A stretch of DNA of 64,000 bases from positions 29,822,001 to 29,886,000 of the forward strand of contig CM069155.1 in NCBI GenBank assembly GCA_035221665.1, read 5' to 3'. Both the position numbers and the translations under genes were made by a program. The stretch's first letter is position 1; each line of letters starts with the position of its first letter. This DNA comes from Okamejei kenojei (Eukaryota). Below are positions 650 through 53,144 of the stretch, piece by piece. Under the pieces are notes generated by a model. It saw nothing but the letters and a program-made list of their open reading frames with translations, did no database searches and was not told where the DNA came from.

Positions 650-3600
650 TGATTCATAATGCAAGACGATAAACAAAAGAAAACTGGAGGAATCACATTT
701 TGTAGTTGGAATATAAGGGGCGCTAATGAACCAATTAAAAGGGGTGCGATCTTTGCCTAATTAAAAAGCCTTAAACAGTGACATTATTTTCTTACAAGTG
801 ACGCATCTGAAATATCAAACACAGATAAGATTGAAGGCAAATTGAATTGGGCAAACATACTACTCTTCGTTTACTTCTAAATCTAGAGGCACGGCTATTA
901 TCATTCGTAAAGGTATACCATTTAAATTAAAGAATACCATAGCAGATGAAGAGGGGAGATATGTCATAGTCATGGCAGAAATTTATTCTACTCCACTTAC
1001 TTTGATAAATATTTATGCTCCTAATTTTGACAACCCCCAATTCTTTAGTAAAATTTTGGATATAATTTCAGAACTTAATCATCAAAATCTGATAATAGGG
1101 GGAGATTTGAATTGTGTTTTAGATCCATATTTGGATAAATCAGCAAAACAAAAAAAGGACAAATATAAAATCTAAAACGAGTGAACTCCTAAATACATAC
1201 ATGAAAAATACTAATATAACAGATTCGCTAACCCAGTAGGTAGGGAATGTTAATTTTATTCAACAGTACATAAAACATATTCACGTATTGATTATTTCTT
1301 AGTGGACACAAAACTAATTCCATATACATATAATTCTAAATATCATAATAGTATTATTTCTGATCATTCCCCGTTAACTTTTTCTTTAAAATTAGCAGGA
1401 ATGCCTGATAAAAATTCGTTTTGGAGGTTTAACCCCCAAATTTTAAATAACTCACAAGGTTGCACATATTTAAAAGAGCAGATGAGATTCTTCTTTGTGA
1501 CAAATGATACACCAGATATTTCAACCTCCTTATTATGGGAAACTTTTAAGACATTTATTAGAGGAACTATAATCTCATATCAAGCTTTCCAAAATAAAAA
1601 GAATAATACTGAACAATTGCAGTTAGAACAAGAAATTAGACAATTAGATTTAGAAAATGTCAAAGAACCAACTATAGATAAACATAATAAGATAATAATA
1701 CTAAAATATAAATTAAATAAAATTTTATCGGCCAGAATAATAAGATTATTTCAAATTACAAAACAAGAAAATTTCGAATTTGGTGATAAACCTCATAAAC
1801 TCCTAGCACGCCAACTGAAAAAACGGGAAACAGAAAATACAATTACTAAAATTAAATCAGGCAAAGGGAATTACTAACACTACCTAAAAATATTAATAAA
1901 AGATTTGCTCAAATTTATCAAAACTTATATACATCGAAAACCTCTGCAAATAATACTCAAATTACAAATTTCTTAGATAAGCGTAATCTTCCAAAATTAA
2001 ATATGGTGGAACAAGAGGGATTAGGAGCTCAGATTACACTACAGGAAATAGAAGAAACAATTAGTTCGTTGAAGAATGGCAAAACGCCAGGACCAGATGG
2101 CTTTAGTAATGAATTCTATAAAAGATTCTTCGAGATAATTTCTCCACGGTTGCATGATTTATATATATACGCTTTTAAAGAAAATAAACCAGAAACACGA
2201 ACTGAGTCAACTATTACACTTATACCAAAAAAGGATAAAGATCTAGAAGACCCAGGCTCATATAGAGCTATTGCACTCCTAAATACAGACCAAAAAATAT
2301 TAGCAAAGACCCTAGCGAGAAGATTGAGTAAATATGTTAGTAAACTAATAAATCCGGACCAAACAGGGTTCATACCAAAGAGAGGGTCACACAAAAAGCT
2401 GGAGAAACTCAGCGGGTGCAGCAGCATCTAAGGAGCGGAGGAGATAGGCGACCTTTCGGGTCGAGACCCTTCTTCAGACTGGTCAGGGATCAGGGAAACG
2501 AGAGATATAGACGGTGATGTGGAGAGATAAAGAACAAAGAATGAAAGATATGCAAAAAAGTATCGATGATAAAGGGAACAAGCCATTGTAAGCTGTTATT
2601 GGTGTGAAAATGCGAAGCTAGTGCGACTAGGGTGGGGGAGGAAGATAGAGATAGAGGGAATGCCAGGGCCCGAGGGCTGAGGGAGAGGTGGGAAGGGGAG
2701 GAGACAGCAAGGGTTAACAGAATTGAGAAAATTCAATTTTCAAGCCCAAAGGATGCAGACTCCCCAAGCGGAATATGAGGTGCTGTTCCTCCAACTTGCG
2801 GTGTTGCTCACTCTGGCCGTGGAGGAGGCTCAGGACCGAGCGGTCGATATGGAAAGGGAGGGGGAGTTGAGGTGCTGAGCCACCGGGAGGTTGGGTTGGT
2901 TTTTGCGGACCGAGTGGAGGTGTTCGGCGAAACGATCGCCAAGCCTCCGCTTGGTCTCACCGATATAGATCATCTGGCATCTGGAGCAGCGGATGCAGTA
3001 GATGAGGTTGGAGGAGGTGCAGGTGAACCTCTGTCGGACGTGGAAGGACTGCTTGGGTCCCTGAAAGGAGTGGAGGGGGGAGGTGAAGGGACAAGTGTTG
3101 CATTTCTTGCGGTTGCAAGGGAAAGTGCCCGGGGAAGGGGTAGAGCGGGAGGGGAGGGAAGAATTGACAAGGGAGTTGCGGAGGGAGCGGTCTTTGCGGA
3201 AGGCAGACAGGGGGGGAGATGGGAAGATGTGGCGGGTGGAGGGGTCACGTTGGAGGTGGCGAAACTGGCGGAGGACTATGTGTTGTATTTGCCGGCTGGT
3301 GGGGTGGAAGGTGAGGACCAGGGGGACTCTGCCCTGTTTGCGAGTGGGGGAATGGGGAGAGAGGGCAGTGTTGCGGGGTATGGAGGAGACCCTGGTGCGA
3401 GCCTCATCAATAGTGGGGGAGGGGAATCCCCGTTCTCTGAAGAATGAGGCAATTTGTGATGACCTGGTGTGGAACACCTCATCGTGGGAGCAGATGCGGC
3501 GTAGACGGAGGAATTGGGAATAGGGGATGGAGTCCTTACAGGAAGCAGGGTGGGAGGAAGAGTAGTCCAGGTAGCTGTGGGAGTCAGTTGGTTTGTAGTG

Positions 3601-4978
3601 GATGTCGGTCAGGAGTGTATCACCTGCAATAGAGATGGTGAGGTCAAGGAATGGTAGGGAAATGTCGGAAATGGTCCCAGTGTATACCAAAGAGATACTC
3701 ATTTAACAATTTCAGACGGCTGTCTAATATAATGTACTCACATAATACTGAAGAAGAACTAGCAATTATTTCATTGGATGCAGAAAAATCTTTCGATCAA
3801 GTAGTATGGCAATATTTATTCAAAGTATTGGAAAAATTTAACATGGGAGATAATTTTGTTTCATGGGTAAAATTATTATATGATAAGCCGACGGCTAGAA
3901 TATATTATCCCCGAAATTCCAATTAGCAAGGGGCAATAGGCAGGGGTGTGCGTTATCGCCCCTGCTATTTGCACTAGTGATAGAGCCTTTAGCTGAAAGT
4001 ATAAGAAGCCATCTGAATATTCATGGGTATAATACCAAACATTCAAATAATAAAATCTCATTATATGCAGACGACATATTATTATTTATTACAAATTCGC
4101 AAATTAGCATACCAAATATACTAAATTTAATAGAGGTTCTTTTTCAGGATATAGAATAAATTGGAACAAAAGCGAAATTATGACGATAAAACCTCAAGAA
4201 TCGACACATCTGTTGAAATTCCCTTTTAGAATTACAATAGAAAAATTTAAGTATTTGGGCATCCAAATTACTAGGAACTATAAATCATTACTCAACACAA
4301 ACTATATGCCTTTATTAACTAAATTAAATGGGTTGATTAAATTTTGGAAAACACTGCCGATGTCTTTAATAGGTAGAATAAATGCGATAAAAGTAATCTT
4401 CTTACCACAAATATTGTACCTATTTCAATCAATACCAATATACTTACCTAAAAAATTCTTTAAAAAACTAGATTCTGATAATATAAATTTCATATGGGAT
4501 TATAAATCACACAGAATTAAATAAAAACACTTGTGTAAATCTAAAGAATCAGGGGGACTGACACTCCCTAACTTATTGTATTATTATTGGGCAGTGAATA
4601 TTAAAAATATAATCTACTGGTTGGACAGTTCTGCCCAACAGGTAGATTGGATAAGAATGGAGAAAGAGGATTGTTCCCCTTATAATATAGGAGTGATCCT
4701 TCTTTCCCCTATAAAACTGAACAATATAATATACAAGAAGAATCCAATTATTCATAGTATAAAACGAATTTGGAAACAAATAAAATTAACTTTAAAATTA
4801 AGAAAATTATCGCTTCTTTCTCCAATAGCTAATAATCCCTCATTCAAACCATCCATTATTGATAAAGCGTTTATCCATTGGGAAAGAATAGGAATTAAAA
4901 CGAAGGGAGATATGCATGAAATGGGAAATTTTTTATCATTCCAACAACTACAACTAAAATATAATTTGAAGAGTTATT
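650..4978 (+). mobile_element. L1-clade LINE ORF2 (APE endonuclease + RT), decayed and 3'-truncated, interrupted by a Penelope insertion
   Basis: ORF fragments INIYAPN, IIGGDLN, ISDHSP, WRFN, KTPGPDGF, SYRAIALLNTD, QTGFI, SLDAEKSFDQV, SLYADDILL and FKYLGI lie in L1 ORF2 order, with several frameshifts and stops. Confidence 0.9.
2384..3683 (-). mobile_element. Penelope-like element, 5'-truncated (RT C-terminus + GIY-YIG endonuclease + pLTR)
   Basis: ORF 2830..3702(-) contains LPFLDL, DIHYKPTDSHSYL and IYCIRCSRC..IYIGETKR (GIY-YIG). A 12-bp TSD ATACCAAAGAGA is at 2372-2383 and 3684-3695; removing the insert restores L1 GFIPKRYS. Confidence 0.92.
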
Positions 4979-5557
4979 AACTGCTAGAGAAGGTGCAGAG
5001 AACTCTGTCATGGTTCCTGCAAACTCGTCTTTTGTGTCTCTCAATAATCAGTCCATTCATGCACACTGCCCCTCAAGACACCTAACACCTACTTCTTAAA
5101 CACACAACATATGAATATTCGCAACATTGATCTCACTCTCCTCTTTGTCCTTCACCTTGGTGAAAAGACATACAACGCACTCGTTTAATACCTGGCCTAT
5201 ATCCCTTGACTCAAAGCACAAATTCCTCCCTTTATCCTCGAGTTACCATCTTTCTGGTTACCCTCTTGCATTTAATTTAGGTATAAAAAGCCTTGCGATC
5301 TTCTTTAATCTAGCTCAGCAAACCCGTTTCATGCCCCCTTTTGGCTCTTCTAATCGACCGCTTAAGTTATTTCCAACTCGATTTTATATTTCTGCCTGAT
5401 TTCATCTTCAGATAATGGGTTGGGTAATCAGGATTAAAAAGAAAAGTATTCTTGGCTGGATGCGATTATAGTATCCCAGTATGGGATCCCTGGCAATATT
5501 CCTTAAATTGAGCAGGTTCAGGTAGACGTCAGATTTAGCTAGGTAAGAACGCTCCAT

Positions 5558-7706
5558 TCATTGTTTTACGCTTCGGACGGCCCGTTCAGTGAGTCCATTG
5601 GACTGAGGAAACTCAGGGCTGCTGGTGATCTGTCGAAAGTCCCATCGTTGAGCAAAGTTTTTTGAAAAGCTGGCTGGCGAACTGACTGCCGTTGTCGGAT
5701 AGAAGGCGTGCAGGGGAACCGTGCATGGAGAACTGGCATTGCAACTTCTGGTTAACTGCTTCAGATGTGATGGTTTAGAGTAGATCCATGTCAAAGCAGC
5801 ACGAATATGAGTTGACAAGAACCAGATGGTGTTTCCCATGCCATTCGAATATGTCGGTGGCTACCGTGGACCAGGAGGAACCGGGTGTGGCAGTAAGGGC
5901 TGCATCTGCTGGTGTGGCGTCAGGCTTTTGCAGATGGTGCAGACTTCAGTTTTGTCATGTATGTACTTGCTCATACCAGGCCAGTAAAACATGCTCTGTG
6001 CCCTTTGTAAGGTTGACTCCACACCAGGGTGTCCCCTGTGGATGGCATCGAAGTACTTGTCCCGGAGGATGGCTGGGACACTGTTTCCTGACCCTTCACT
6101 ATAATCCCGTCCTGTAACACCAGTTCATTGCGAACCAGGAAGTATGGGCGGATCGCAAGCGGGCTGCTGTGTTGTTTATCCGGCCAGCCACGCCGGATGA
6201 CTGCGGACAGCAATTGTAAAGTCTCCTGTCAAAGTCAGCAGCCTTGTGTTCTGCCAGGCTGCTTAGGCAATCAGTGGGAACATACGATACCTTCATTACT
6301 GAGAACTGCTCCTGTTCAGAGGGCTGTTGTTCGCTGGTTTTGCATGGGGCCCTTGATAGTGTGTCAGCTATGTGCATATCCATGCCTTTTTTGTAGACAA
6401 TGTTGAAATCAAAATGCTGCAGTTGCATCATCATCCATTGCAGGCGAGCCGGAGCGGCGTGAATGGGTTTATTCAAGATGGTGACCAGCAGCTGGTGGTC
6501 TGTTTCTGTAGTCAGGACCATCTTTGTGTGTCAGTTCCCGCACGGGGGCAGATATATCGCTGAGGTTGGGCATAAATTTCCCCAGGTAGTTGACCATTCC
6601 ATATGACCTTTGTAAACTCATAACGTCAGTAGGAACTGACATTTCGTTGATACCAAACGTTTTTGATGGTCTGGTCTGAGACCATCACTTGTGAAAACAT
6701 GGCCGACAGAGGTAACTTCCGGGACCGGAAACTTGCACTTCAGTGGATTGAGTTTGGGCTGAATGTCTTTGACATGGTCCAGCACTCTCTTCAGATGCTC
6801 AGCCAAGTCACGCCCATAAACGAGAATGTCGTCGACAATGATGGTGCATTGATACCCCGCAAACAGTTGTTCCATGGTGCACTGGAAAACCTCACTGGCA
6901 GAGTTGGTGCCAAAGGGCATTCTTAGGAATTTGTAACGGCCGAAGGGGGTGCCGAACATAGTAAGGTTGGAAGAGTATGGGTCCAGCGGAATCTGCCAAA
7001 ACGAGCTTTTGACATCCAGGAATGGAAAACAAGGATGCGTTGCCTATTTGAGCAGCAACTTCTTCTACCATTCGCATAGGGTAGTGTGGCCGTTTGATTG
7101 CTGTGTTGAGGTCCCCGGGTTGATGCAGATACAGATTTCTTCCTTGTTTTCCTTCGTTGCAACCACCATGGTGGAAACCCAGTTAGATGGGTCAGTAACT
7201 TCAAGCAATGACACCCAGGGAGACTATCCGCATTAGCTCATTGTGTGCTCTGTCGCGCATGGCATGTGGAACATGATGTTGTGCTCGAACCACAGGATTA
7301 ACTTTGGGATCAACGGTGATGTTGTACTTGAGGGGCAGCTCATCGTTAAACAGTTATCTATATTGAGAGAGTATTTGCTGAGTGGGGCCCCAGCGAGAAA
7401 GAGTTGATGGGCAGTGCGGCCAAAGTTGACTATGCCTAGATCGTGGCATGCATTGACCAAGCAGAGTTTCAGAATCCCCCCTTGATGATATAAAACTTCA
7501 GGGTATGAGACTGCGAGTCTATGATGCAGTTCAAATCAGTTTCTCCAAGCGAGTGTAGAACATCACCCCCGTAGGACCGTAGCGTGGCTGAGGCCTTTTC
7601 AACTTGTTCAGCATTACGTTTTTTTTTAACTCCAATAACAAGATGACATTACATTTCACTCCCATGCCAACTGGAGGCGTGGGTTCACATCCCACTTCTG
7701 ACACCA
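5558..7706 (-). mobile_element. Gypsy/Ty3 LTR retrotransposon internal region, decayed (protease remnant, RT, RNase H, integrase; gag absent)
   Basis: GVKCNVI (protease-like remnant), TPFGRYKFLRMPFG, IVDDILVYG, ETDHQLL, HIADTLSR and SSPEFPQSNGLTERAV, in RT-RH-IN order. Confidence 0.88.
7672..7706 (-). promoter_or_regulatory. Primer-binding site for tRNA-Leu(CAA), extended to about 35 nt
   Basis: The + strand reads TGGAGGCGTGGGTTCacATCCCACTTCTGACACCA, matching the 3' end of vertebrate tRNA-Leu(CAA) including CCA (recalled, not searched). It directly abuts the LTR end. Confidence 0.85.
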
Positions 7707-7881
7707 TGTAATGAGTCGAGTCATACACACATCAAGATACAACACATATTTATTAGTCCACTTACAGCATTGGTCTGCAGGACATTACAGTAACTAGCAG
7801 CTACTCAGACTGAATTATGTAAGCAAGTTCTTGGTAATATAAATCGCATAGTAAACGAAGCTACTACTAACAAGCACTACA
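7707..7881 (-). repeat. 5' LTR of the Gypsy element
   Basis: Adjacent to the PBS, bounded by TGTA...TACA, with AATAAA on the minus strand near 7750. The outer boundary is approximate because no second LTR is present. Confidence 0.6.
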
Positions 7882-8169
7882 ATTGGTTAGTAACCAATCT
7901 ACAATAGATACAGGAAAAAAAACATATAATAGTACTTAAGTCTGCATGGACTTCAATTCATAAAATGTCAACCTCTTCCAAACGTTAATGAGACTTACAC
8001 TGTAAGTTACTACCGTAAATAAGTTAGTTAAAGTTCAAGCTGACAAGCATTGATTGATTTCAACATAAACATCCACCATTTCTGAGCATTTCTCACTGCG
8101 ATGGAAGGCAATAAAGTGCAGTCAACCTTCCTCCATTGTTCTCCCATGGTCAAGGCCTTTTTATTTCTG

Positions 8170-8545
8170 TTTTATTTGTCATATGTAGGTTAACACAGGG
8201 TCAACGGTACAATAAAATGTGTTTGACAAGACAACGGGTCACCTCAGCAATAATATAACAAGGTTATATGCAAGATGCAAATGATATTGGTAAGGTAATA
8301 AGACAATAATAAGATAATCAACATATATGACATAAAATGTGTTTATGAGTTCAGAAGCCTGATGGCCTGATGGTAAAAACTGTTCTTAAGTCTGGTGGGA
8401 TGTGCAGCCATGTTCCTGTATCGTCAGCCTGACGGTAACAAGGAGAACCGTCTGCGTGCTGGGTGGCTGTGGTCCTTGATGATACTGTGTGCCTTCCGCA
8501 GGCACCGATGGTGTAAAATGTCCTGAATGTCGAGGAGACAGTTGC
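8170..8545 (-). mobile_element. Rex-Babar LINE 3' fragment
   Basis: RCLRKAHSIIKDHSHPARRRFSLLPSG C-terminal motif plus an AT-rich 3' UTR. Confidence 0.7.
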
Positions 8546-21700: not shown

Positions 21701-22364
21701 ATTTTACTTCGGAGTCACGTGAGTGACTATGTGAAGAAGCCCTGCCTGGCGCTTGCTCGGCATTAAGTCGACGCATGTGAAGCTCGGACAGGGTGGAGCT
21801 CCCACCAGCCTAAGTTTAACCCGCAGGTAAGTCGCTGTTGAACTTTCTTGCTAGTGGGCTTAAACTCTGTAAGTCTGCAGAGCCAGCTAGAGTGCTGATG
21901 TATTTTGAAAAATCTTTTAAAACTCTGTAACTCTGGCTCGAAATACGGAGCCAGCTAGAGTGAATGTATTTTTAAACTGCTGTAATTTAATAGAATCCGC
22001 TGGAACCGCAGTTTCCGATCTAGATCGGATCGGGAGATAAGGGCTGCTTTAAAAGCCGGCTCCCGCTATTTACCGCTATTTAGATCGGGTTTGGAGATAA
22101 CGGCTGCGCTAAATGCCGGTTCCAAATACCCAGTAATTGTTAAATAAAGTCTGCTCTGAGTATATATTACCAGATGCAGTTTCTTTATGGAAATGTATAT
22201 AACCCTGTGTGATACTGAGGTTAATACAGATATTTTGCAAGCAGAATGTGCCTGTCAGAATTACAATTTTATACATATATGGTTTATGCATAAATACAAG
22301 ATAGTAAAGAAGTAACTCTCCTCCAAGGGAGGACAAGAATGTGGGGAAGGCTGGAAATGGAGAA

Positions 22365-27755: not shown

Positions 27756-28458
27756 TGGTAAGTTTGTTGATGGCCCAAAAATTCGTGGCATTGTTAATAG
27801 TAAGATTAAACGAGAACTTACCAGTTCGAAGTTTGATCTTTATTTTATGAGGAGTAACGATGAGGGATTACGTGAAGAAGCCCCGCCTGGCGCTGGAACG
27901 GCATCCTTCAAAGCAGCGGCATGAAAAACACAGAACACAATAGCCGGAGTAAGATAGTAAGGCTCATCATAGATTTAGAACTACCAGATGATCATTTATT
28001 TTATGAGGGTGTGGAGTGGAGGGCACGTAATCCCTCATCGTTACTCCTCATAAAATAAAGATCAAACTTCGAACTGGTACGATCTCGTTTAATCTTACTA
28101 TTTTACTTCGGAGTCACGTGAGTGACTATGTGAAGATTTTGAAGCTTCTGTGTTTTTCATGTCGTAGAATTCTTCCATACGACAGTCCAGCTAGGTCAAC
28201 ACATACATGAGAAAAACCAGACTAGTTTTAGTTCTTTCCATAAATCTTTTAATGATAAAAGAACATATAATAACCCTCTTTTTACACCTGAGGGAACCAT
28301 TACAAAGTGATAAAAGATATAGGTGATAACATAATTGATAATATCAATCAATAGTGAAACAAAGCAGGTGATTATAGTGAACCCAACACCGCGTGTCCAA
28401 AGCCTGTCATTGTGTGAACAGGTTTATTGTAGAACTTTGAAAAAGTTTCTTCTTTACA

Positions 28459-32852: not shown

Positions 32853-35800
32853 AATAGTAAGATTAAATGAGAACTTACTAGTTTGAAGTTTGATCTTGAT
32901 TTTATGAGGAGTTACGTTGGTGATTATGTGAAGAAGCCCGCCAGGCCGCATGCGCACCAAACTTCAAATCAGCAGTATGAAATCACAAATAAACAACACC
33001 GAAGTACATAGTAAGATCAGTGACTCGCGAACTACCATATGATCCTTTATGAGAGAGGGTTGGGCATGGCGGGCACGTAATCACCAACGTAATTCCTCAG
33101 AAAATCAAGATCAAACTTCAAACTGGTAAGTTCTCGTTTAATCTTACTATATTACTTTGGAGTCACGTGAGTGATTCCGTGAAGAGTTCAAAGCTTTGTG
33201 ATTTCATGCCGCAGATTACAAATCTCGGCATCCCACTGCATTGATTAACTGGAAAGAGAAATAAATGCATTAGCAGTAACATTGCAATCAATGTTAAAAT
33301 AGGGTTAATTTAACAATGTAAACAAACAACAGTACCCCTTAAATTTAGGTACTTAAAATGACATAGGCAAACAGTCCTGGATTGACAATCGGCCGATGAT
33401 AAAAATTCTGATACATCAGCTCATTTGCCCATCTGGCAGCCACCAAATTATTGTCAAAGGGCACGTCCCTCGCCTTGGCCGCCGACGTAGCTGCTGCCCT
33501 AGTGGAATGAGATGTAAACACACTATCTAAATGAAAGGCTGACGTTGATACTGACCTGGTGGAATGAGATATACAATCTTCAGTGTTAATATCTGTAAAA
33601 CCCAGAACCTGCAGCAGCCACCATGAAAAAAGTCTGAACCGACCTTCCTTTTTGTAGTTGTTTGTTAACTAATAAACAATGCTGATTCCATACTTCTTAG
33701 GATTCTGGTGGCCTAGATAACATTGAAGTGAGACCGTGGGGTGTTCAAATGTTCTTCAATCATGCTATCCCTAGTCTACTCTGGTTGTGTAGACCTGAAT
33801 GTAAATGTAATGGCACCTGCAGCCAATTCCATCCTATCTAGCCACAATGTTTGCAATGTTTCCCGTCGTTGTGCTGATATAAGTGTCATAACTAAGGATG
33901 TAGCTGGAACCTCTTGGTGAAGTAATGTTCACACATTTTCAATAACTAACTGCATAATATTGTAGTGGGAGAACTTGTGTCAAGAACTTTTAACAACTCG
34001 ATATCCGGGTTGGACATGAGAGCGTAGTTCCCTTATGTTGCAGCTGTAGTGTCTCTATAACTGAACTATTGTCAATACCATTTAAAATGAGCTGGAAATG
34101 TCAGTAATCTCTACCGTATTAAATGTAATGTTAACATTTAATGAAACACTTCTGATCCCCTCAATAGGAATGTACTGCTTTTTTGGGTGCTATCCCTGCA
34201 CACTGCTGTGAGCACCTTCATAGCTTGGTGTGACAACCTGAGGAAAAAGTCAATCCATTCAAAATGTGTAGGTCAATAATTGTTTTACTGTGCAAAAGCC
34301 AATCTCTTGAACCACAGTTTGAAACAGCAAGTTCTTGTTTATTGGCATAACCGTCTACCGTTGTGCCATAATGCCTGATGAAGCAGGCAACATGGACGCT
34401 TGGCCAGTCCGACAGTACGAACCCAAGTGAGGTCTTGCTGACTGTTTTAAGACCCGGCTAATGAGGTAAAAAATGAGGAAGACATAAAGACCATTCCTCC
34501 TATTGAAGCGAGAAAGTATTTCTCCGCACTGATGTTTGCAATGAATGAAAAACATGCATTAACATGATGAATATTCGATGAAGTATTGAACCATGCTTTC
34601 ATCATACTTCGAGATCCAACACTTATTCTGTGTTATCATCGATCTGAACTGGATGATACCAGTGGCAAGGAGATTAATTACAGGATATTTTTCCCTTAAT
34701 TATCATGTGACTAACATATGTCACCATCGTAGAGTAGCAACTTGAATTGGAGCATGTAGAATATGTATATTCGCTCAAAACCACTTACTCATGGGTGCAT
34801 TTAGTGTATATATTTAGTTGATACCAACAACTGAAGAATTGATAACTCATGCAATCTCCACTACCTTTGAGTAGGTGATGGTATTTGGAACTTCTCATCT
34901 TAGAGTTCTAAACATCAGTTCATAATAACTGAATTCAACCGACCACACTACTGTAGTCGTTTTCAAGTTCAAGTTCAATGAGTTATTGTCATGTTCAGCA
35001 ATGCTGAATACTGTTACTTCATCATTGTGGCTGAAGTAGCCTCAGCTGACAATTGCACAAGGTTGTTAGCAACGATCTAATTGCTACTTACACAATATCA
35101 GTTCCTTGATTTGCTCAGCTGCATCACAGCTGATATATTGCCAATTACTCTTAATGAAAATAACTCAGTTTTGTAACAGATTGCTATAACCCCAATCTCT
35201 TGCCACAAGGCGGAGACAAGGCTAATAATAATTAAAGGTAAATCCCAATGACCAACAAACAGTTTATCCCATACTGCAAAGCTTTACTGTTTATAGTACA
35301 GTTATATTGGCTTTGATAACCTTTGTAATGGGATTTGTATAACATGTATCTCTTACCTTATGAATCTGTTGTAGTCAGGAATACGTTTTTACATTCGGAT
35401 AGTTCATATGCCCGATACTCTCCATTTTTCATAATAACATGCCAATCCTGCCTTATTGCATGGGTGGTTTGCATGAGAACTTTTGCCCACTTTTCAAACC
35501 CTGACCTTAATCCAAACTTACTTGGAATGCTCCGGCTGTGCCTCAACCAAATATTTTTATCCTTTGTGTGTTGTACAAACAAACGTAAATATTACAACTT
35601 GTGAACGGTGCACTACCCAAATTTTGGAAGTGCTAGACCCATTTAGTTGAGCATGATTGGAAGGGGCATGGAATTTCTGAGCTATCATGCTGCCCCCAGC
35701 TCCAGTGAACTGCTACTGCTGATGAGCGCCTGGGGTGCATTCTGAACGTCGTTGGCCAAATTAATTCATCTGCTAGGCTTCTTCCCCTGTAGAATAGACC

Positions 35801-51340: not shown

Positions 51341-53144
51341 ATGCAACAAAGAGCTTTATCACTTACCCCTTGGCCATTCTAATCGCCCACGTGAATTCTT
51401 TGCCCATTGCTTTATTTTCATCAAAAGCCCTAGCTGACTTCATCTTCAGGAATGGGTTGGGTAATCAGGACTAAAACGGAAAGCATTCTTCGCTGAGTTT
51501 GGGATTCTTTACTGCAGCTGATCGCCAACACACAAGCAGATTGATATCTAAATGGTTCCCAATTGGGAATATTGGGATTGTTCAGTATGACACTGGAGCT
51601 AGTCTAAACGCTCAACCATGCATCCGGATGGAGGCATGCACAACCTACTTCTGCAGTTCTTATTTCTTCTTATGTTTCCAACTTGCATTTGCTCAAACTG
51701 AAAAATTGATGATGGTCAATTTTACATTGTAGCTTTCTAAATTTAATCTAAATTATTAATTTGGCCCTCTAAGTCAACCAACTGAGGGCAAATTCGAAGG
51801 ATAGCTGCTAGCATTTAGTTGCATCCAAATGTGCATTTTTATTGGTTTATTATTATCATCTACACCGTGGATACAGTGAAAAAACTTTCTGCGTGCGATC
51901 TCGTGAAATTATTCCATCTATGAGTGTCATTAAGCCATTTACAGGTGCAGCAGGTGGTACAAAAAGGAAAATACAGAGCAGAGATATAGTGCAGGGAAGT
52001 TATAACAATACAGTTGCAGCGAACGTGTATTTTTTTTTACATGTAAGTTCCTCAAAGAGCTAGGCTTGAAGCTGATGAGAGAATAGTTCAATAGTCTGAA
52101 AACAAGCTTTTAAATAGTCTGTCCGCAGGAAGAACAACGAACAGTAAATGACTGGAGTAAAACGGTGCTTGTTTACGTGGCCACTTCATGAGGCAGATGG
52201 AGTCTAAGGGGGGGGTGGTTGATTTAGTTATAGGCTGAGCTACATGCACAACTCTCTGCAGTACTGAGAGTTAACAATAATGCGAATAATTGCAGACCTA
52301 TCAAGAGAATCAAGATGTCACACGGGAATCATGGATTGAAACCACGTAGTACACATATAGTTGTTTCGATTTTTATCCTCAAATAATTCTGGCGACCTAC
52401 TGACAATGTTTGCTGTTTGATTTGTAATCGCTCCACCTTAATTGGCTGAGAATTACCTCCTATAATGCATCCACATGCAGGTAAATACAGGGGAGAAATT
52501 GTTGCATCTGTATTAGGAGATTATGGCGGGCGAATAAGCAGGCCACGCGTGGTGAATCAAAGGGAACAACACACAGGCGGATGGGGAGAGGTTGACAAGG
52601 GGTTCATTATATATACTAGGGCATACCCCTATACCTCGTGACAACTCCATCCCGCCATTACACAGTCACGTAACCCTACCCCCCGACTGCCGAGGGTTCG
52701 ATTAGTAAATGGCCTAACCACCGGGTGACGCCACTTGGTGCTTGAATTGGCCAAAAGTGGCAGAGTTGTGATCAGCATTAACTCGAGTTGGGGGAAGAAC
52801 TCATGCTTCATAAAATCAGCGAAACATTAGCATCACCAACAAGGGGGCATTCAAACCATCATGACTGCATGTCGAGATAGAACTACCCAGTCTAATTACA
52901 CATACCAACATTATCACTGCAGCACTGCAAATATTGGCTCTTTGCATGCAAAACCATCTACTTTTTGCTGTGACGTTATATTCCGGTTCCGGCGACTTTT
53001 ACTTAAAAATTACCTTCGGTCGCATGGCACAAGGTTATCACAAATCAGGTGTAAATTATAATAAATACGCGCCTCACTCATCTGGATTAAAACTTCCGTG
53101 TTGGAGGGAACTGGTTTACACGGAAGATAACCGCAAACGCACGA

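Follow-up and report, generated by a model that had tools for sequence, protein, structure and literature searches.

The question raised by this locus is how a retrotransposon's primer-binding site (PBS) came to continue into the sequence of its own primer tRNA and then to run straight into pol. The window, that is, the whole stretch of 64,000 nucleotides that was analysed, carries on its minus strand a decayed Ty3/gypsy element of Mag-like type. In the sense of the element, a long terminal repeat (LTR, 7903-7707) is followed by the PBS (7706-7689), by an extension of tRNA sequence reaching 7672, and then by pol.

The 5′ LTR (7707-7903, minus strand) is 197 nt long, has TG...CA ends and a poly(A) signal at 7754, and is delimited by contig boundaries in sequencing runs of related species. 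At its inner edge, 7707, between 57 and 69 contigs per run depart into unrelated flanks in the four runs, a pattern that would be expected of solo or 3′ LTR ends. The outer edge is marked by loose contig ends near 7892 in three of the four runs, and one listed alignment (record 24) extends to 7903. The LTR adjoins the CCA of the PBS with zero spacer. Its reading as a 3′ LTR with a retained primer is ruled out, as neither a polypurine tract nor pol lies upstream. No second LTR was found within the 64-kb window; the 3′ LTR is absent, and the element is severed inside integrase.

The coding remnants follow in the order protease, reverse transcriptase (RT), RNase H and integrase, collinear with the relatives of the element, which encode a single gag-pol protein of about 1350 residues. 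The near relatives, whose names read only K02A2.6-like, Ty3 or Gypsy, include skate proteins, which makes a cartilaginous fish the likely host. The protease remnant (7481-7671, minus strand) begins at the active-site motif and is frameshifted; residues 329-413 of the relative P0006 match Asp_protease_2 weakly, under the curated cut-off. The RT remnant (6520-7480, minus strand), identified by tblastn and by RVT_1 (E 1.3e-14 on 6618-7043), contains stops and frameshifts. Most of RNase H is missing through a second internal deletion at 6515-6520, where residue 734 of P0006 aligns at 6520 and residue 831 already at 6515, so that about 96 codons are gone. The connection and integrase remnant (5474-6515, minus strand), with Integrase_H2C2 and rve matches, aligns until about residue 1175 and is cut at 5474 by a different repeat, of which 5401-5458 matches 51439-51495. 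The CpG observed/expected ratio of the element is 0.57, a depleted value. After becoming fixed in the germline the copy decayed; it is dead and without evident function.

The element resembles the Mag lineage as described in the available part of PMC3286476, in its short LTR (119-304 nt in Culex, 197 nt here), its tRNA-Leu PBS and the single gag-pol ORF of its relatives with the order PR-RT-RH-INT. Mag elements are recognised by a short LTR together with a Leu or Ser PBS, and both the length and the Leu primer of the window copy fall within the range of Table 1 of that source. Unlike Mag elements, the window copy lacks gag, part of RNase H and the 3′ end, and the likeness is one of LTR length, PBS and ORF order, not of a tree.

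The canonical 18-nt PBS (7689-7706, minus strand) is the complement of the 3′ end of tRNA-Leu including CCA. The next 17 nt (7672-7688, minus strand) are the complement of the T-arm and of the 3′ side of the variable arm, and 15 of these 17 are identical to human tRNA-Leu-CAA-2-1. Taken together, 33 of the 35 bases at 7672-7706 (plus strand) equal the 3′ end of that tRNA including CCA, in a comparison by eye against a human and not a host reference (PMC10359600, excerpt). The sole mismatches are neighbours, at 7687 (G57 in the tRNA, A in the window) and at 7688 (A58 in the tRNA, C in the window). The 35 nt also fit the tRNA copy of an outside locus (L035, described below); its spliced sequence and the metazoan tRNA-Leu gene in L049 likewise have G57 and A58, so the same two differences appear against them. 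For the 15 bases 7672-7686, the chance of matching at a fixed site is 3e-10. The CCA is present in the window copy, as in any PBS, and the copy stops short of the intron site. The isoacceptor may be CAA or CAG, the 35 nt being too short to tell the two apart. Neither ARAGORN on the window nor Rfam on 7000-8500 detects a tRNA gene, and the LTR-PBS-junction RNA folds no better than its shuffles (z 1.17).

When 19 relatives were aligned to the window by tblastn, the earliest credible alignments (P0017 and P0043) began at residue 336, in the protease active-site motif, at window position 7671. The gag residues of full-length relatives gave no credible tblastn alignment, a single match to earlier residues (E 0.40) being taken as noise. 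Therefore about 335 codons and the leader have been lost, and pol adjoins the tRNA copy. The junction can be placed only within 7667-7672, a zone that both sources fit in part: tRNA-like contigs of the related species, 23-34 per run, align down to 7667, and one pol-side record (record 15) aligns up to 7670, the other pol records stopping at 7657-7662 (four runs). The three observations of the original prediction, namely a tRNA match running past 18 nt through the T-arm into the variable arm, mismatches limited to G57>A and A58>C, and a protease remnant directly after the tRNA copy without gag, were thus all recovered.

Retroviral reverse transcription supplies a framework for these observations. 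In HIV-1 and MLV, the plus-strand stop before m1A58 is established, as are minor read-through products that reach positions 55, 54 or 37 (PMC8599865, excerpt; PMC13191261, section 10). Products that extend beyond U54 are said not to transfer properly and, in HIV-1, are stated to be unable to integrate (PMC8599865, excerpt). Applied to the window copy, RT would have copied the primer tRNA-Leu past the usual stop at A58 during plus-strand synthesis, adding 17 nt. The over-long plus-strand end would then have been unable to pair or to extend at the PBS and would have resumed at protease on the unfinished minus strand, the leader and gag being skipped in one event. Only the plus strand copies the tRNA, and because of this the extra 17 nt very probably derive from plus-strand read-through. 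A misplaced transfer to protease that dropped leader and gag in one event can be proposed with good confidence, and the partial fit of both sources at 7667-7672 allows a short microhomology at the transfer point. The presence of the second large deletion of about 96 codons speaks against a single event, as losses evidently do occur in this copy.

Copies of the family in related species were compared over 7250-8050 in four of 24 listed runs, and the statements that follow concern the matches listed, 32 of 6210 pieces. None of the listed runs contains half of the words of the window, and therefore none can be said to hold an orthologous copy. The LTR family is abundant in these four runs. In one family copy (record 5) the alignment begins exactly at 7689 and is preceded by 102 unlike letters, which is the layout of a plain 18-nt PBS. 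Four pol-side pieces (records 14, 15, 26 and 29) end at 7657-7670, and no piece among the 32 listed reaches across the junction. A further relative, the outside locus L031, has a gag 70% identical to P0019, a pol relative of the window, together with an 18-nt PBS and gag 91 nt further on. In this small sample the tRNA-extended PBS is accordingly not universal in the family.

The contigs aligning from 7667 (23-34 per run) run on for 8-9 letters like the anticodon stem of tRNA-Leu(CAA) and then become heterogeneous. They are read as intron-bearing tRNA genes because the heterogeneity begins about at the intron position of Leu(CAA); elements with read-through to position 38 would look alike. Leu-CAA tRNA genes do contain introns (PMC4536317, excerpt), as does the gene in L049. 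The summed depth of the T-arm bin lies 8 to 11 times below that of the PBS bin in all four runs, depth not being equal to copy number. One contig (X23) joins 7550 to 7680 with one letter between, that is, part of the tRNA T-arm to a point 129 nt deeper in protease. It may record a separate overrun that came down further into protease, or else a sister copy that shares the extension and has one more deletion. In one run (X1), the match of 12 contigs is confined to the final 10 bases of the PBS, from 7697, beyond which they have another sequence in common (agreement 0.73); their probable source is a related family whose PBS is shorter or altered.

Public contigs were also scanned for exact matches to the 18-mer PBS, a procedure that favours young copies. 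With six of 64 parts scanned, three viral and 117 metagenome loci were obtained, 120 in all. L049 was dropped as a read-through copy, being an intron-bearing tRNA gene inside a tRNA cluster. Over the 119 Leu-PBS loci the length of the tRNA match is bimodal: it is 23 nt or less in 114 and 40-60 nt in five, an overrun rate of about 4% (95% interval 1.4-9.5%). The five long copies belong to four of 99 LTR-end groups. Only some of the 114 short loci are demonstrably LTR elements: downstream gag matches occur in about 17 and pol matches in five. A match of 19 nt occurs in 26 loci, as chance predicts (about one in four). A scan of viral contigs for the extended tRNA pattern gave no loci, and a protein scan with P0006 gave no matches.

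The five long copies end and land differently. In L035 a spliced tRNA copy of 60 nt ends at position 27, and gag is retained, starting about 20 nt later; read-through therefore does not entail the loss of gag. L052 carries 57 nt of spliced tRNA followed by unrelated DNA, and its LTR is common to L094, which has a plain PBS and gag. Both L035 and L052 cross the intron site in spliced form, so the template was the mature tRNA. L041 (around 702) consists of a 99-nt LTR, the PBS, a 45-nt tRNA copy with changes at 58 and 57, and then 22 nt from the end of the element's LTR. Identical 4-bp flanks enclose the whole, as would be expected if a single read-through product had integrated; the flank resembles a kinase exon by its motif. 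In L119, the least sure of the five given its atypical LTR end, 42 nt of tRNA are followed by pol from residue 864 (E 9e-5). L077 has 40 nt of tRNA and then unrelated DNA, with an LTR common to L035. The LTRs of L035 and L077 (PBS at 1501 and 386, element sense) are 95% alike, and these two long copies are the only sampled members of a family that may either pass on a long PBS or tend towards read-through.

Misplaced transfers are also found at plain primer sites. In L007, L036, L072 and L109 an 18-nt PBS is fused at or near its boundary to the interior of pol (RT, connection or integrase sequence), and in L047 a plain PBS is joined to LTR sequence. Misdirected plus-strand transfer without read-through may thus be as common as with it; overrun and misdirected transfer both recur, separately and together. 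Because overruns rejoin gag, pol, LTR or unrelated DNA, and because four loci fuse a plain PBS to pol, plus-strand read-through past A58 followed by misdirected strand transfer is probably the best reading of the window copy. The jump into pol after reading past position 58, as first proposed, is well supported by the 18-nt family copy, by the varied ends and landings of the five overruns among 119 loci and by the four PBS-pol fusions. The case was also presented as a rarity; given the overruns at outside loci, it looks like a member of a recurring class.

The main competing account divides the history into two steps, a read-through copy with a long tRNA insert and gag, like L035, from which a later genomic deletion took gag and clipped the tRNA copy. 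The retention of gag after 60 nt of tRNA in L035 and the second deletion of about 96 codons both lend it some plausibility, and the join of 7550 to 7680 in X23 might reflect one more deletion, in a related copy. Nevertheless, the deletion would need a start point inside a short tRNA insert or exactly at it, gag does not follow the tRNA in four of the five read-through copies from outside, and four plain PBSs are fused to pol at or near the PBS boundary, so that such a sequence of events is improbable. No better are the prospects of an inherited long PBS, a large primer over-extension sequence belonging to the family or to a non-autonomous subfamily of which the window copy would be an ordinary descendant. 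Record 5 stops at exactly 18 nt, as does L031; the T-arm bin lies 8 to 11 times below the PBS bin in four of four runs (a matter of depth, not copy number); and the contigs from 7667 turn heterogeneous about at the Leu(CAA) intron site. This account can nonetheless appeal to L035 and L077, both long and with a common LTR, to the possibility that the 23-34 contigs per run from 7667 are elements instead of tRNA genes, and to lentiviruses and spumaviruses, which keep a short over-extension sequence (PMC13191261, section 10). A chance match, or a tRNA retrocopy or SINE fragment inserted beside the PBS, is close to refuted: tRNA copies inside an LTR are known from cqgypsy_1 (PMC3286476, section 13), yet here the added tRNA sequence carries straight on from the PBS, in exact register, in the same orientation and free of any duplication, against a chance of 3e-10, and ARAGORN and Rfam place no tRNA gene at the site.

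The two mismatches pose a separate question, since read-through could have been faithful, on an under-methylated A58 or by correct pairing, and both differences could have arisen later, the one at 57 by CpG decay and the one at 58 by a chance transversion. The odds of this are a little short of even. Over the 31 listed pieces inside the element (one piece outside was set aside), the divergence from the window is 12.8%, or about 6.4% per lineage, although long pieces may lean toward divergent copies. Age alone thus predicts 2.2 mismatches in 35 nt, equal to the number seen; the count is therefore uninformative, and only the position is telling. CpG decay is a plausible origin for G57>A, in keeping with the CpG observed/expected ratio of 0.57. 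A neutral A-to-C change at one pre-named site, by contrast, has a rough chance of only 0.8-3.3%, and the other 33 positions are unaltered. Four of the five outside read-through copies retain both A58 and G57, as later mutation would predict, but L041 is altered at the same two positions (T58 and A57); the coupling of 57 and 58 over the six copies gives a Fisher p of 0.067. The signature expected of m1A is present as a mismatch at the modified A (C at 7688), yet the base C is atypical: in an m1A-A context the C signal is low, though not zero, in vitro with a laboratory RT, an enzyme that differs from that of the element (PMC4787781, section 27). PMC3401476 (excerpt) lists small-RNA primers whose base at the position-58 site of the 18-mer is C or G; they may be tRNA cDNA errors or genomic matches and are not used here. 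That C58, perhaps together with A57, is an RT error opposite m1A58 instead of later decay has a chance only slightly above one half. The part of the original prediction that named m1A misincorporation therefore stands at somewhat better than even, strengthened by the double change in L041 and weakened by A58 in four of five copies, the low C signal and the 2.2 mismatches expected.

The points at which the tRNA copies end may also carry information. Counted from the tRNA 3′ end, the last base of the window copy is the 35th (e3 in the numbering used here); the base that follows it, C at 7671, agrees with e2 of human Leu-CAG-1-1. In mammalian tRNA-Leu(CAG) e2 (47d) is m3C (PMC8373065, excerpt). 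It is possible, if doubtful, that the stop at 35-36 nt marks a second block, m3C at e2, provided that the primer was Leu(CAG). Inside the PBS, human Leu-CAG-1-1 departs from the window at one base, and the m3C reading therefore needs another isodecoder; a Leu-CAG isodecoder fitting the window PBS presumably exists. The L035 copy ends next to position 26, which presumably carries dimethyl-G, a known RT block. Both end points are leads only. In a wider but rather unlikely view, integrated read-through products would be common but overlooked, making up a few percent of Leu primer sites, and as a class they would record the state of tRNA modification in the germline, with ends at blocking bases, a coupled error at 58 and 57 (the window copy and L041), and some families (L035/L077) in which a long primer site with gag may have become fixed. 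As separate observations on L119, three tandem tRNA-sense copies of a stretch of the Leu variable arm lie upstream of its PBS (about 490-545 and 265-300), and its tRNA copy after the PBS finishes in a fold-back hairpin.

Vector work on retroviruses offers a likeness. Pulsinelli and Temin reportedly described in 1991 retroviral vector deletions, arising from strand-transfer errors, that start at the PBS and resume inside the genome, some of them with extra tRNA sequence. Unlike those single-cycle vector products, the window copy is endogenous. In HIV-1 and MLV read-through, as probably here, the primer tRNA is copied beyond 18 nt, and the retroviral products show further stops at later modified bases (PMC8599865, excerpt; PMC13191261, section 10); those products come from in vitro and cell work, whereas the 35-nt product of the window was integrated in a germline, in a retrotransposon. 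The over-extension sequence of lentiviruses and spumaviruses is likewise tRNA complement beyond the 18-nt PBS (PMC13191261, section 10), but it is inherited and conserved and extends by just a few bases (to positions 55/54), whereas that of the window measures 17 nt, is missing from at least one family copy and is followed by a deletion. The cqgypsy_1 element of Culex (PMC3286476, section 13) is again a gypsy element whose LTR-PBS border holds a long stretch of tRNA sequence with CCA; there, two whole tRNAs (Lys and Glu) occur with a flanking 26-nt LTR duplication and were likened by the authors to Twin SINEs, in contrast to the partial primer continuation of the window. A literature search for integrated or genomic tRNA read-through at the PBS, mostly in open-access texts without supplements, returned only papers on the mechanism in HIV, MLV and Ty1 or on tRNA modification in general, and no report of a gypsy fossil. 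The available portions of PMC12789967, PMC6088434, PMC7449687 and a bioRxiv tRF paper contain nothing on integrated read-through.

The window copy is best seen as the fossil, now dead, of a kind of RT error already known, met here in a new context, and its chief value is that of a member of a countable class. Evidence for m1A58 as the plus-strand stop comes from work in vitro and in cell culture, which holds that longer products do not integrate. The window copy and the outside copies indicate that longer products do integrate, by misdirected transfer, often enough to be counted. Mining genomes for such copies could yield in vivo read-through rates, landing sites and error spectra for the RTs of retrotransposons. 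For species without tRNA sequencing, it might also provide a fossil map of tRNA modifications.

Other features of the window were recorded in passing. Next to the LTR, a separate high-copy repeat occupies 7917-8039; contigs in two runs return from 8038/8039 to 7917, which suggests a tandem unit of about 155 nt. On the minus strand, 2830-3702 is a 290-codon open frame with a GIY-YIG-like motif, which we take to be a likely Penelope-type element nested in a LINE. Finally, 27796-28102 and 32854-33150 are MITE-like units of about 300 nt with terminal inverted repeats of 77-79 nt, and related pieces occur near 21701.
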